DNA of 64,000 nucleotides, taken from NCBI RefSeq assembly GCF_044324875.1, contig NZ_CP172185.1. The stretch is one strand, 5' to 3'. Numbering within the stretch: the first letter of the stretch is position 1; each line of letters begins with the position of its first letter. This document shows, in pieces, positions 36,222 through 41,351 of this stretch. Below the pieces are notes generated by a model. It searched no databases. It worked only from the letters and a program-made list of their open reading frames with translations, and had not been told where the DNA came from. The DNA is from Escherichia coli. Lineage in GTDB: Bacteria; Pseudomonadota; Gammaproteobacteria; Enterobacterales; Enterobacteriaceae. The position numbers and the translations under genes are program-made.

Positions 36222-37034
36222 TCAGATGTAGGAAGGGCGATCGTTTTTCGGTGTATCGCCGAGAGTCGAAAGCACGGTTTTACCGATTTCGCGTGCGGAG
36301 ATGACCGCCTGGCGGACTGCGCCGGAGTCACCCGAGATAATCAGAATGACTTCATTGCTGTAGCTGGTGCCTTGCGCGGGGGAGCTGTATGCCACAACAT
36401 CCACATTGGCGGACTTCAGCGCGGTGTCTGCCATCAGAACACCCACCGCAGCCGGAGCGCCGACAATAACGCCGCAAGCCCGTCCCAGTGGAGCGCCAAA
36501 CGCTTTTTCCAGTGCATAGCTGGCGCGGGCGGTATATTGCAGTTCAAGATGTCCGGCTTCGTTGGCATAGACATCGCCAAAGGTTCGATCGAGTTCTTTC
36601 AGGGCAACTTCAATACCGCGTTTCACGTCGGAAACATCGTTGCCACCTAAGAGGATCAATGAGCCGTGTCCGGCACCGCCTTTAGTATCGCGAGGAAGTT
36701 CAATGCTAATAACTTCAGTATTGGTTGCTTTTACCGCTTCATCAGCGGCCATAATGTGTGGACCTGCGCCAATACGCGCACCCAGAATGCCAATGGAACG
36801 ATAGCGTTTTTCAAGTTTCATTGCGTCCAACAGGGCGCTATCAACGTTCGCAATGACCAGACCTACAGTGTCGCCAATAGCGGTGCCAACAAATTCTGTT
36901 AACGTGCAGCTTTTTTCTGCCATAGCCGTCTCTCGTATTTGATGAGTGGTTTTCGGGAGAACCTCATGCTCTGGCGTCGCTACGCGAGCGATGACCTGCG
37001 CCATGATCTGTTCGACCAGTTCATTGCTGCTCAT
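36222..37034 (-). CDS. pduB: microcompartment shell protein (tandem BMC, BMC-T)
   Basis: 270-aa ORF upstream of pduC; tandem BMC domains. Confidence 0.85.
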
Positions 37035-37315
37035 GGGTTAATTCCCTTTGGTAAGATTTTTTCGACATCGGTATGTGGGCGGGGAATAACGTGCACGGCT
37101 TTTACTTCGCCGACGTTACGCGCAGCTGCGGCACCTGCGTCTGTTGCCGCTTTTACCGCCCCGACATCACCACGAACGATGACGGTCACCAGCCCGGAAC
37201 CTATTTTTTCGTAGCCGACCAGCAAAACATTTGCCGACTTCACCATGGCGTCTGCGGCCTCTATGGCGGCAGTTAAGCCTTTGGTTTCTACCATTCCTAA
37301 CGCTTCTTGTTGCAT
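37031..37315 (-). CDS. pduA: microcompartment shell protein (BMC-H), first gene of the pdu operon
   Basis: 94-aa [60 protein letters not shown]... Confidence 0.9.
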
Positions 37316-37826
37316 AAAGACCTCGCCTGGATTTTTTTGACGATATGACTATAAAAAAAAGCGAGGAAAAAGAATGGCTGACTTAATCGGCTAATGAGAA
37401 AAATTAATAGAGAACAAATATTATAAAATTGCTTTTATGAACTATATGTTGTTAATTTATTAGTTGTTTTGTGGATATTTCAATGTGAATTAATTGCGTT
37501 GGCTAGTGAGTTTAATCGCGAGTAATATTTTGTGGGGGGGTGTTCGAGGAAGGAACTGTGATATTTGTTTCAATTTTATTATGTCATGATGGCAATTTTT
37601 TATTATAAAAGTTTGGCGGTAATTATTACTTTCAACACTGATTAACGCTGTGTTGCATGATTCGGTAATGACAATAATTTGTTATGTTAGCACGATTTTT
37701 ACACGAGTCTGTCATGCATGTTAGCAATATTTTCTGCAGAGCAATTTTTTATAGTTGCGCTCGATATATACAACAATCAGCGCATAGTTGGCTGATAAAG
37801 AAAAACTCCGTAAAGAAGGTGTCACT
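37316..37826. promoter_or_regulatory. divergent pduA / pduF control region
   Basis: A 510-bp AT-rich intergenic region between divergent pduA and pduF. Expected from Salmonella knowledge to carry PocR-dependent promoters; individual sites not resolved here. Confidence 0.5.
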
Positions 37827-38636
37827 ATGAATGATTCACTCAAGGCGCAATGCGTTGCCGAGTTTTTGGGCACCGGACTGTTCCTCTTTTTTGGCATTGG
37901 TTGTTTGTGCGCCCTGAAACTTGCCGGGGCAAGTCTGGGACTGTGGGAAATTTGTATCATTTGGGGGTTAGGGATTTCGCTTGCTGTTTACCTTACGGCA
38001 GGTATTTCCGGCGCTCATCTCAACCCGGCAGTTACCATTGCTCTGTGGCTGTTTGCCTCTTTCCCAGCCCGTAAAGTGCTGCCATTTTGTGTGGTGCAAT
38101 TAGCGGGTGCCTTTGGTGGTGCGGTTCTGGCATATTTTCTCTACAGCAGTTTGTTTACCGATTTTGAATCTGCTCACAATATGGTGCGTGGTAGTGCAGA
38201 AAGTTTACAACTCGCCAGTATCTTCAGTACTTATCCGGCAGCGGCGATTAATGTATGGCAAGCTGCGTTGGTCGAAGTGGTCATAACGTCCATGTTAATG
38301 GGGTTGATTATGGCGTTGACCGATGACGGTAATGGCGTACCCAAAGGACCGCTTGCGCCTTTACTTATTGGTATTCTGGTTGCTGTTATTGGTGCTTCTA
38401 CCGGACCATTAACCGGTTTTGCCATGAATCCAGCGCGTGATTTTGGACCTAAAATTTTCACCTGGCTTGCGGGTTGGGGGGAAATTGCGATGACTGGTGG
38501 ACGCAATATTCCTTATTTCATTGTACCCATTATTGCACCGATCATTGGCGCATGTGTTGGTGCGGCGATTTATCGCTATCTCATTGCAAAGAATTTACCT
38601 GTCAATAGTGTTACACCTAAAGAAATCAGCGAATAA
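37827..38636 (+). CDS. pduF: propanediol diffusion facilitator (MIP/aquaglyceroporin family)
   Basis: MNDSLKAQCVAEFLGTGLFLFFGIGC... with two NPA motifs (HLNPAVT and MNPARD). Confidence 0.88.
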   Translation: MNDSLKAQCVAEFLGTGLFLFFGIGCLCALKLAGASLGLWEICIIWGLGISLAVYLTAGISGAHLNPAVTIALWLFASFPARKVLPFCVVQLAGAFGGAVLAYFLYSSLFTDFESAHNMVRGSAESLQLASIFSTYPAAAINVWQAALVEVVITSMLMGLIMALTDDGNGVPKGPLAPLLIGILVAVIGASTGPLTGFAMNPARDFGPKIFTWLAGWGEIAMTGGRNIPYFIVPIIAPIIGACVGAAIYRYLIAKNLPVNSVTPKEISE

Positions 38637-38838
38637 CGAAATAATCTGGCAGCTATAAACGTTTATTTTTTTACTGTTTGTGATCTGCTTTCCGAACTTA
38701 TTAAAAAGTCTCCCGCTTCACGGAGGCTTTTGTTATTGTCCTTTGTGCTTCTCGTCAGTAAATCATCAGGGATGATGTGAAGATTAAATGTAAAACAATT
38801 GTTTTGCTATAACAATAAATTAACTGGGAGGTTTTATC

Positions 38839-39753
38839 ATGATTTCTGCGGCGACACTTAATTCAGAACTCATTAATAAAATCGCGCAGGATTTTGCGCA
38901 GGCGACCAGCCTTGCGGTTGTCGTGGTCAATATTCACGGCGATGAAATTTCCGAGCTGTTTAACTTCACTCCATTTTGTCAGATGATGCGGCAACACTCT
39001 CAGCTTAGCACTCGATGTCGCATGAGCGATCGTTGTGGGGGCCTGGAAGCCTCTAAATCCGATCAGCCTTGTATTTATCGCTGTCATGCCGGATTAACCG
39101 ATTTCTCTATTCCACTGGTAATCGCCGGACATTTAGTTGGTTTTGTATTGTGCGGGCAAGTTCGTCTGCGTAATGATGATGTCGATTTGGTCGATATTCT
39201 GAATGTCGATGATTGCTGGCAGGCAGATCCCGAATTACTTAATGAATTTCGCAAAGTCCCTGAGATGGATTACTCAAGAGTTATGGCCTCTGCTGATTTG
39301 TTGAAGTTGATTGTGGAAAATTGCCTCAAAAAACAACTCAATTTTGTTGTTATTAAAGAGAACAAATTTCAGTCAGATTCGGTGCGCCAGACTCGTGCGC
39401 CTAATCCCCACGACAATAAAATGAAAAAAGCTTTACGCTATATTGATGCGCATTTATCAGACGATTTGCGTCTGGAAGATGTCGCCTCGCACGTTTATCT
39501 AAGCCCTTATTATTTCAGCAAGTTATTTAAGAAATACCATGGGATTGGGTTTAATGCGTGGGTAAACCAACAACGGATGGCCAGCGCTCGTGAGTTACTG
39601 TGCCATAGTGACTGGAGCATCGCCAGCATTGCGCGTAATTTAGGTTTTTCGCAAACCAGTTATTTTTGCAAAGTTTTCCGTCAGACTTATCAGGTTACGC
39701 CGCAGGTGTATCGGCAGCAAGTGAATGAAAATGCGGCGATGGAAACGGTATAG
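38839..39753 (+). CDS. pocR: AraC-family regulator of pdu/cob genes
   Basis: 304-aa ORF with a C-terminal AraC helix-turn-helix; position after pduF. Confidence 0.85.
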   Translation: MISAATLNSELINKIAQDFAQATSLAVVVVNIHGDEISELFNFTPFCQMMRQHSQLSTRCRMSDRCGGLEASKSDQPCIYRCHAGLTDFSIPLVIAGHLVGFVLCGQVRLRNDDVDLVDILNVDDCWQADPELLNEFRKVPEMDYSRVMASADLLKLIVENCLKKQLNFVVIKENKFQSDSVRQTRAPNPHDNKMKKALRYIDAHLSDDLRLEDVASHVYLSPYYFSKLFKKYHGIGFNAWVNQQRMASARELLCHSDWSIASIARNLGFSQTSYFCKVFRQTYQVTPQVYRQQVNENAAMETV

Positions 39754-39869
39754 AGTAAATGCCAAAAAAAAGGAAGGTTTAAATAAACGCTGGAATGAAT
39801 AATTAACGTTATTTACGTGTTATGGGAAAAGTGAAATCAGCTCATAACATACGCTGACAGGTGTGGCAC

Positions 39870-40080
39870 ATTTGTGCCAGGGAAGAGGGTGAAAATCCCT
39901 CGCAGCCCCCGCTGCTGTAATGCTGACAAACCCGAAAATGCCACTGATCGCGAGATTGGGAAGGTCGGGTGAGGATGACGCTAAGCCAGAAGACCAGTCT
40001 GTCAGTCAATACCAACAACTTCGGTGGGAAGTGGGTTGCCCGGAAGCGTCCGGTAGAGTACTGGCGCGTCTTTATACCCC
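39870..40080 (+). promoter_or_regulatory. cobalamin (B12) riboswitch; boundaries approximate
   Basis: Contains the conserved riboswitch blocks ggtgaaaatccc, cgcagcccccgctgctgtaa, gccactg, gggaaggtcgg and the B12-box-like aagccagaagaccag. Confidence 0.65.
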
Positions 40081-40234
40081 TACCACCCTGAAAGGATCAG
40101 GGTATGGCGGCATCATTTAGTTCTTTCATCGCAGTGCCAACAGGCACCAGAGCTGCACTTAAGGTGTGGCAATCTTGTTTCATGGCTCATCAACCAGACC
40201 GCCATTACAGGAAACTAAGTGGAGGGCGAGGGAC

Positions 40235-40672
40235 ATGAAAACGATAAGACCCGAATCGATAGCTCTTTTTTGCCTCTTATCTGGAGATGCGGACCTGGCG
40301 AAACAATTGGCTGAAATATTGCCAATAACTTGTTTTGTTGGTGAGGACTGGCAGCAAGATTTCCAGCCTCTTGACGGTGGGCCTGTGCAATCGTTATCAG
40401 ATGTGTATGGCGATTATTCAGTGCTGCTATTGATAGCAGCTGAAAGCGAGATATCCGTACCAGAATGGCTCGCTCATTCTGAAGGAACGACGGTAATTGT
40501 GATTGCAGAACACAATGCCCGTTTGCTGACTGGTCCGGCTGGTGGGGCTGTAGCATTGATCCATTATCTGAATGAAATCTGTCATTCCAGAGAAACCGCT
40601 GTCAATGACGCATTTTGTCGTACGTTAACACGAGGAAGTCTGGCTATTCCGCAATGCCATCTTCTTTCGTAA
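40235..40672 (+). CDS. hypothetical protein downstream of the B12 riboswitch (possible cbi-deletion remnant); alternative start at 40166
   Basis: Open frame of 146-168 codons with protein-like composition immediately 3' of the riboswitch and 5' of cobU; no family recognised by eye. Confidence 0.3.
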   Translation: MKTIRPESIALFCLLSGDADLAKQLAEILPITCFVGEDWQQDFQPLDGGPVQSLSDVYGDYSVLLLIAAESEISVPEWLAHSEGTTVIVIAEHNARLLTGPAGGAVALIHYLNEICHSRETAVNDAFCRTLTRGSLAIPQCHLLS

Positions 40673-40805
40673 TGGATTGAGAATGCTGGATTTTTAATTA
40701 TATTACGCGCAGTATTAATCGCGTAAATGTTTTGCGGTCAGCAACGGTGGGGGATCCATTGTTCTGTTCAATGAATACCATCATACAAATGAATCAGGAG
40801 TCGGT

Positions 40806-41351
40806 ATGATGATTTTGGTGACGGGGGGCGCACGGAGCGGGAAGAGTCGCCACGCAGAGGCGCTTATTGGGGACTCTTCACAGGTTCTGTATATCGCCAC
40901 CTCGCAAATCCTTGATGATGAGATGGCTGCACGGATAGAACATCATCGGCAAGGCCGCCCGGCGCACTGGCGCACGGTGGAGCGCTGGCAACATCTTGAT
41001 GAATTAATTCATGCAGACATTAACCCGCATGAAGCTGTGTTGCTGGAATGCGTTACCACAATGGTGACTAATCTGTTGTTTGATTATGGCGGCGATAAAG
41101 ACCCTGATGAATGGGATTATCAGGCGATGGAACAGGCAATTAATGCTGAGATTCAGTTGTTGATTGCTGCCTGCCAACGTTGCCCCGCGAAGATTGTATT
41201 AGTGACTAACGAAGTGGGAATGGGGATTGTGCCGGAGAGTCGTCTGGCACGACATTTTCGTGATATTGCCGGGCGGGTAAATCAGCAGCTGGCCGCTGCG
41301 GCAAATGAAGTGTGGCTGGTGGTTTCGGGTATTGGAGTAAAAATCAAATGA
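40806..41351 (+). CDS. cobU: adenosylcobinamide kinase / adenosylcobinamide-phosphate guanylyltransferase
   Basis: 181-aa [26 protein letters not shown]... (P-loop). Confidence 0.92.

Follow-up and report, generated by a model that had tools for sequence, protein, structure and literature searches.

Mirror-image promoter modules with predicted PocR boxes in the spacer between pduA and pduF of Escherichia coli

The closest described relative of the DNA considered here is the pdu/cob region of Salmonella. According to the account of Chen et al. 1995 given in PMC10433801, the activator PocR exerts its effect at promoters that lie upstream of pduA and of pduF, and PMC10433801 itself reports that MBP-PocR shifts a fragment from upstream of pduA. 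For the cob promoter, Pcob, PMC11264322 describes two PocR boxes confirmed in vitro, 20 and 48 bp in length and 52 bp apart, with box II lying 9 bp from the -35 region. Both boxes are needed for activation, and either one alone suffices for roadblock repression by PocR (PMC11264322). For the pdu promoter, Ppdu, the same paper proposes boxes 215 bp apart. Published work also reports inputs from ArcA, CRP, Fis, CpxR and CsrA to pocR and pdu expression, and a 2024 engineering paper still described as unclear how PocR interacts with its promoters. Propanediol utilisation gives an advantage to Salmonella and to adherent-invasive E. coli in the inflamed gut, and PocR and its promoters are under development as a 1,2-propanediol biosensor.

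The window analysed here, a 64-kb stretch of E. coli DNA, contains a locus of this kind. It carries pduA (37031–37315, minus strand), assigned from its open reading frame and from how RefSeq annotates a 98.6%-identical E. coli locus, and, from their reading frames on the plus strand, pduF (37827–38636, ATG at 37827) and pocR (38839–39753). The chromosome that carries this 98.6%-identical locus is annotated with the same gene arrangement. PduA differs from the Salmonella protein of the solved structure 3NGK by a single substitution across residues 2–93, and the neighbouring PocR belongs to the NCBIfam equivalog NF047788.1 (549.4 bits, against a cut-off of 500).

The initial annotation described the DNA between pduA and pduF as an AT-rich spacer of 510 bp. 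Its low GC content is evident (0.325; the window has 0.495, pduA 0.53 and pduF 0.475), but its true length, from 37316 to 37826, is 511 bp. Just 0.08% of 511-bp segments across the 64 kb are as AT-rich. Two A/T tracts had been singled out, of which the one at 37600–37720 is indeed AT-rich (GC 0.33), whereas the one at 37321–37340 is only partly so (GC 0.45) and contains the ribosome-binding region of pduA. Homopolymers occur at 37332–37338 (T7), 37353–37360 (A8), 37534–37540 (G7), 37596–37601 (T6) and 37745–37750 (T6). The spacer is single-copy. Of 5426 complete E. coli genomes, 640 contain it with 90–99% identity, which corresponds to a pdu locus in 12% of the total.

Related spacers were gathered by several routes. 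A genome scan with PduF yielded 12 loci with pduA-pduF-pocR synteny, ranging from other Escherichia lineages to Yersinia and Tolumonas, and an exact look-up of Salmonella PduA yielded Salmonella and two other enterobacterial loci, the Salmonella loci being verified by a match to a published primer sequence. Metagenomes scanned for the invariant promoter pattern of the pduA side supplied further loci; about half of the loci retrieved in this way were dropped as unrelated chance matches or partial contigs. The resulting comparison set consists of 27 representative spacers more than 7% apart from each other, with loci denoted below by L numbers. The arrangement in which pduA and pduF-pocR diverge from a common spacer is shared by 61 related loci, and the spacer measures 509–528 bp in most lineages across Enterobacterales and more in a few.

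The spacer aligns with its counterparts from Salmonella, Citrobacter-like, Enterobacter, Yersinia-like and Tolumonas loci. It resembles the Salmonella region in gene order, AT-richness, the activator PocR and length (511 against 524 bp), and both promoter cores as well as boxes B and C, described below, are invariant between the two. The regions differ in that their overall identity is only 68% (global 0.68), the spacer diverging faster than the flanking genes (76–84%). In addition, about 50 bp at the centre have been replaced in Escherichia with loss of a TCCATATTTACA...TGAC block, the Escherichia box F is weaker, and the Pcob boxes and the TAnAGT hexamer are missing after pocR. A comparison with the Salmonella pdu/pocR control region had been suggested as a check, and it does reveal conserved blocks, which form two mirror-image promoter modules. 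The blocks that are invariant with respect to Salmonella span 37348–37384, 37668–37701, 37725–37755 and 37813–37826. Across all aligned spacers, the invariant or near-invariant elements are AAAAGAATGGCTG, the TATAGT hexamers, a CAA-N4-TTG core and the pduF ribosome-binding region. Shared synteny, the adjoining PocR equivalog, the 68% identity and the invariant islands in 27 spacers identify this DNA as the Escherichia orthologue of the pdu/cob control region in Salmonella.

The module that faces pduF contains a predicted -10 hexamer, TATAGT, at 37750–37755 (plus strand), which would place the start of the pduF(-pocR) transcript at ~37762–37764. The hexamer follows a CCAA/GCAA element in 27 of 27 representative spacers, with TATATT in L015, and it corresponds to the invariant alignment columns T435–T440. 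The reading of TAnAGT as a -10 hexamer is supported by a primer used in PMC11264322 to truncate Pcob at its start site, which stops just past TACAGT. Upstream lies the proximal element, box D (ATGTTAGCAATATTTT, 37718–37733, plus strand), in which GCAA begins 26 bp upstream of the -10 hexamer; other genera carry GTTGCCAACAATTT at this place. Box D is a direct repeat of the flank of box C (repeat family D2).

Box C itself (ATGACAATAATTTGTTAT, 37668–37685, plus strand) begins 82 bp upstream of the -10 hexamer and continues into a conserved flank, GTTAGCACGATTTTTA, that extends to 37701. No other element of the spacer is as well conserved as box C with this flank (...GCACGATTTTT). Box C scores 23.5–29.2 bits in 23 of the 27 representative spacers and less in the four most distant, and its offset from the -10 hexamer is 81–82 bp in every spacer where one was assigned. 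A distal PocR-type box, box B (ATGGCAATTTTTTATTAT, 37589–37606, plus strand), is found 79 bp upstream of box C. At the other end of the module, the translation initiation region of pduF (37813–37829, plus strand) comprises a conserved AAGAAGGTGTCAC and the ATG at 37827.

The module that faces pduA is the mirror image of this arrangement. Its predicted -10 hexamer, also TATAGT (37348–37353, minus strand), lies 32 nt from the pduA ATG within TTTTTTATAGT, the mirror of 37745–37755. The two copies of TTTTTTATAGT form a perfect 11-nt inverted repeat (I3), which was recovered in an independent repeat search. Columns G32, A33, C34, T35, A36 and T37 of the hexamer are invariant in the 22 sequences of alignment A2, and in the wider set A1 the third base of the hexamer is variable, with TATATT in Tolumonas and Yersinia. 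The proximal element of Ppdu, CAGCCATTCTTTTT (37367–37380, minus strand), has its GCCA beginning 25 bp upstream of the -10 hexamer and overlaps the -35 position; 13 of its 14 columns are invariant in all 16 and in all 22 aligned spacers, and the 14th is more than 90% conserved. Farther upstream lies a PocR-type box designated box F (AAAGCAATTTTATAATAT, 37418–37435, minus strand), whose start is 82 bp from the hexamer. Its match to the motif is weak within the Escherichia clade (6.7 bits) and reaches 27.5 bits among Yersinia-like loci, and in 23 of 27 lineages its best match is found at an offset of 80–82 bp. Between the pduA core and box F, the Escherichia clade carries an imperfect 14-nt tandem duplication of TAATAGAGAACAAAT (37392–37419, two copies, 86% matches).

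From the position of the -10 hexamer, the 5′ untranslated region of pduA is predicted to be ~26 nt long (37316–37341, minus strand), with a Shine–Dalgarno sequence GAGG at 37321–37324 (minus strand) and a conserved block at 37316–37333 (conservation 0.86). An RNA construct used in PMC10433801 starts at -44 relative to the pduA ATG, upstream of TATAGT. If -44 were the true start of the pduA transcript, the -10 assignment for Ppdu would be wrong; the bases 7–12 nt upstream of -44 are TTTTCC, which is not -10-like. The CsrA-binding pduA leader of Salmonella has a GGA (CGGAAC), and the Escherichia leader, GTCAAAAAAATCCAGGCGAGG (37316–37347, minus strand), lacks this motif, and CsrA may consequently control pduA differently in Salmonella and Escherichia.

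The upstream boxes share an 18-bp, partly palindromic consensus, approximately ATrGCAAnnnnTTGyTAT. A position weight matrix (PWM) derived from the box C sequences of 18 diverged spacers identified box B as its best independent match (16.5 bits) when both strands of the entire 64-kb window were scanned, and gave no match of at least 12 bits in the other 63.5 kb of the window. When the best box of each spacer is left out, the 27 spacers contain 1.08 matches of at least 16 bits per kb, compared with 0.0099 for unrelated DNA totalling 503 kb. Three loci that have a pduF homologue and neither pocR nor pduA carry no box. In other genera the boxes occupy fixed positions relative to the pduF ATG, namely -238 (box B), -160 (box C) and ~-421 (box F, facing pduA), and the mirrored boxes were recovered independently by a repeat search. 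A fourth box, box A at ~-360, is represented here by a degenerate block, ATGTGAATTAATTGCGTT (37483–37500, plus strand), and is weak in the Escherichia clade; it is strong in one lineage only, represented by L028, L029 and L100 (25–28 bits, at -359/-361 from the pduF ATG).

The low GC content of the spacer (few stretches of the window are as AT-rich), the presence of the pdu locus in about one in eight complete E. coli genomes and the rapid divergence of the spacer relative to its flanking genes are also what would be expected of horizontally acquired, H-NS-silenced DNA that holds two ordinary promoters and in which the boxes are compositional noise. This account is scarcely credible in view of the number and placement of the boxes: four matches of at least 10 bits are observed in the spacer, against 0.16 in mononucleotide shuffles, and box positions and box-to-hexamer distances are constant within 1–2 bp across genera despite ~50% divergence of the intervening DNA.

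The same motif and spacing recur at Pcob. In Salmonella and five other genera, the cob promoter region immediately downstream of pocR contains two boxes 76–78 bp apart. When a 17-bp spacer is set before TACAGT, the published box II falls exactly at the promoter-near site, and box I falls over the distal site. Boxes I and II of Salmonella Pcob (Rondon and Escalante-Semerena 1996, as relayed and tested again in PMC11264322) thus resemble the boxes found here in carrying the same 18-bp motif, in forming a pair 76–79 bp apart from start to start and in placing the near box 80–82 bp from TAnAGT. They differ in that the boxes here serve pduF and, in mirror image, pduA instead of cob, and are predicted PocR sites. 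From box start to TAnAGT, the distance is 80 bp at Pcob, 81–82 bp at the pduF promoter and 80–82 bp at Ppdu (23 of 27 lineages). Ppdu, PpduF and Pcob may share one rule, in which a box lies 80–82 bp upstream of TAnAGT and a GCCA/GCAA element lies at about -38; this geometry may already have been covered by Chen et al. 1995. Correspondingly, the spacer may consist of two mirror-image modules instead of the single promoter with boxes 215 bp apart that was proposed in 2024, and the 215-bp Ppdu pair of PMC11264322 can be understood as a box in one module paired with a box in the other.

Homology, specificity and the geometry shared with the PocR-footprinted cob promoter are the grounds on which the boxes are read as PocR sites, and two PocR-dependent promoters are the best reading of the spacer that its sequence affords. 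It is nonetheless conceivable that the 18-bp boxes are operators of ArcA, IHF, Fis or another factor, and that PocR contacts only the proximal GCCA elements. The boxes are AT-rich, box C matches the ArcA direct-repeat consensus at 9 of 12 positions and the IHF consensus at 8 of 9, and its flank fits the Fis consensus. Effects of ArcA, CRP, Fis and CpxR on pocR and pdu expression are on record, as noted above, and IHF is reportedly required for induction of cob and pdu. Such an assignment is improbable, since scans of the spacer with the ArcA, FNR, IHF, Fis and CpxR consensus sequences gave counts at or below those expected from shuffled sequence, the box is confined to three PocR-controlled promoters, and the box positions at Pcob coincide with published boxes that are needed for PocR-dependent activation (PMC11264322).

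The spacer is thus very probably made up of two back-to-back, activator-dependent sigma-70 promoters under PocR control, orthologous to those of Salmonella. The earlier proposal of a divergent control region whose promoters depend on PocR in either direction gains support from synteny, the PocR equivalog, homology to Salmonella and the likeness of the mirror-image modules to Pcob. Neither module contains a recognisable -35 hexamer, and a scan with the sigma-70 consensus found one site in the spacer, where 2.2 are expected by chance and shuffled sequences contain more; matches below chance are as expected of activator-dependent promoters. The one sigma-70-like site (37483–37454, minus strand) lies in an unconserved stretch and, with the count below chance, was rejected as a promoter. 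A TTTACA-N17-TAAAT block seen in genera other than Escherichia was likewise rejected as a second pduF promoter, corresponding to the Salmonella ‘P2’, as it fails the promoter rule in L016 and L017 and is missing here.

The most likely mechanism is that PocR, an AraC-family activator whose gene lies just downstream and would be co-transcribed with pduF, binds in the presence of 1,2-propanediol to the box centred near -84 and to the proximal GCCA/GCAA-N5-TTT element that overlaps the -35 position. PocR bound in this manner would recruit RNA polymerase to both TATAGT promoters, with predicted starts, from the positions of the hexamers, at ~37341–37344 (minus strand) and ~37762–37764 (plus strand), and would thereby activate the pdu operon on one side of the spacer and pduF-pocR on the opposite side. 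As the pduF-side promoter would also transcribe pocR, positive feedback would result. A bend between -84 and -38 would suit the requirement for IHF. The AT-rich centre, with its CRP-like site and probably with sites for nucleoid proteins (IHF, Fis or H-NS), may add global control.

In kind, such a control region is ordinary and already known from Salmonella work of 1994–1996, as far as later descriptions of that work convey. The present map refines a logic that has been familiar since the 1990s and leaves it unchanged. The block map, the 80–82-bp geometry, the mirror layout and the losses in the Escherichia clade supply targets for mutagenesis and sensor design.

A broader likeness exists to araC-araBAD and other class II promoters of the AraC/XylS family, in which a regulator gene diverges from its target operon, an activator site overlies a -35 region of poor quality, additional sites are found upstream and CRP provides an input. 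The locus departs from araC-araBAD in that pocR comes second in a pduF-pocR unit and in that the box lies near -84 and is partly palindromic. MarA, SoxS and Rob recognise the marbox, AYnGCACnnWnnRYYAAAY, which we take the GCAA/GCAC-containing asymmetric core found here to resemble. The eutS/EutR ethanolamine microcompartment operon is comparable in its AraC-like activator, in being a B12-dependent microcompartment operon, in its positive feedback and in its CsrA input (PMC10433801), but eutR stands at the end of its own operon and is not divergent, and the control DNA shows no sequence similarity.

The centre of the spacer is its least conserved part in the alignment, and the stretch from 37436 to 37667 is not accounted for base by base. 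Within it, a central segment of ~50 bp with low conservation (37501–37553) is characteristic of the Escherichia clade; in alignments A1 and A2 it takes the place of a block kept in other genera, TCCATATTTACA-N9-TGAC...TTTGCTATGCG. The G7 run of the window falls within this segment. At the same position (37534–37540) the closest E. coli has GGGGTTT and other relatives have GAGTTTG, and the G7 may reflect either variation specific to this strain or an error in sequencing a homopolymer.

Downstream of this segment, a CRP-like site, TGTGATATTTGTTTCA (37557–37572), matches 8 of 10 consensus positions, and its TGTGAT half is conserved. Matches of this quality are expected 0.44 times in shuffled sequence. 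The site lies ~200 bp from either predicted start, and inspection found no -10-like hexamer at the canonical distance from it.

The initial annotation also raised the possibility of a leader or small RNA. The length of the spacer, its incompletely explained centre, a 48-codon open reading frame at 37684–37830 and an Rfam small RNA (STnc230) in the neighbouring pduF-pocR spacer could all be taken to mean that the spacer encodes, in addition to its promoters, a small RNA of its own, a leader of the attenuator type or a small protein. A search of 37316–37826 against Rfam at a permissive threshold identified no family, its sole match being a chance-level snoRNA (E=6.1), and a terminator scan of both strands found no terminator-like sites or hairpins in the spacer. 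The scarcity of sigma-70-like sites and the poor conservation of the centre also speak against such a product. The 48-codon frame was rejected as a gene, since a 1-nt indel at 37745–37750 (T6 against T5) shifts the frame in the closest relatives and the frame is not conserved. An additional product of any of these types is consequently very improbable. What does persist of the earlier suggestion is a short, always-paired hairpin in the predicted pduF leader of ~64 nt.

This hairpin (37776–37796, plus strand) consists of ATCAGC, a 9-nt loop and GCTGAT, and has no U-tract. RNAalifold, applied to 19 sequences, predicted its six pairs with none broken. In 18 distinct sequences the pairing is 100%, against 7–51% for slid partners. 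One pair is altered on both sides, and the G-U wobbles fit the plus strand only; this covariation is probably a single event that parts the Escherichia clade from the rest. With a folding z-score of -0.45, the stability of the leader is not unusual, and the hairpin is put forward from comparative sequence data as a candidate element and no more. That the one-rule module at all three promoters, together with this hairpin as an element of post-transcriptional control or stability of pduF-pocR, constitutes a finding not yet in the literature is a tentative and rather doubtful suggestion.

Downstream of pduF, the minus strand of the pduF-pocR spacer carries the Rfam match to STnc230 (38695–38778; 74.8 bits against a gathering threshold of 50, E=1e-10), antisense to any read-through from pduF to pocR. 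Its stem-loop (38704–38731) also scores as a terminator on the plus strand, and could serve between these two genes as a terminator or attenuator that works in both directions. A literature search for STnc230 found no paper that mentions it.

Beyond pocR, the boxes and TAnAGT of Pcob are present in Salmonella, L005, L009, L013, L016 and L017. In the window and the Escherichia clade, neither a box nor the TAnAGT module of Pcob was found downstream of pocR. Instead, a cobalamin riboswitch (39842–40016 in the window, 104.7 bits) begins 89 nt past the pocR stop codon. The cbi genes are missing. In the stretch 39754–40805 of the window, the riboswitch is followed by a hypothetical 145-aa reading frame (40235–40672) with no Pfam match and then, at 40806, by cobU.

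The pduF leader varies in length among relatives. In L006 (Enterobacteriaceae bacterium RIT691), an insertion of ~52 bp just downstream of the pduF-side TATAGT (2876–2927 of that locus) extends the leader to ~120 nt, and the distance from box C to the hexamer is still 81 bp despite it. In the Yersinia-like L007 (2342–2534), the leader is 115 nt longer than in the otherwise similar L112. The inserted DNA holds a long inverted repeat (…CACCCCAGTCACTTACTTATGTAAGTTCCTGGGGA…), which is presumably akin to the ERIC/IRU intergenic repeat.
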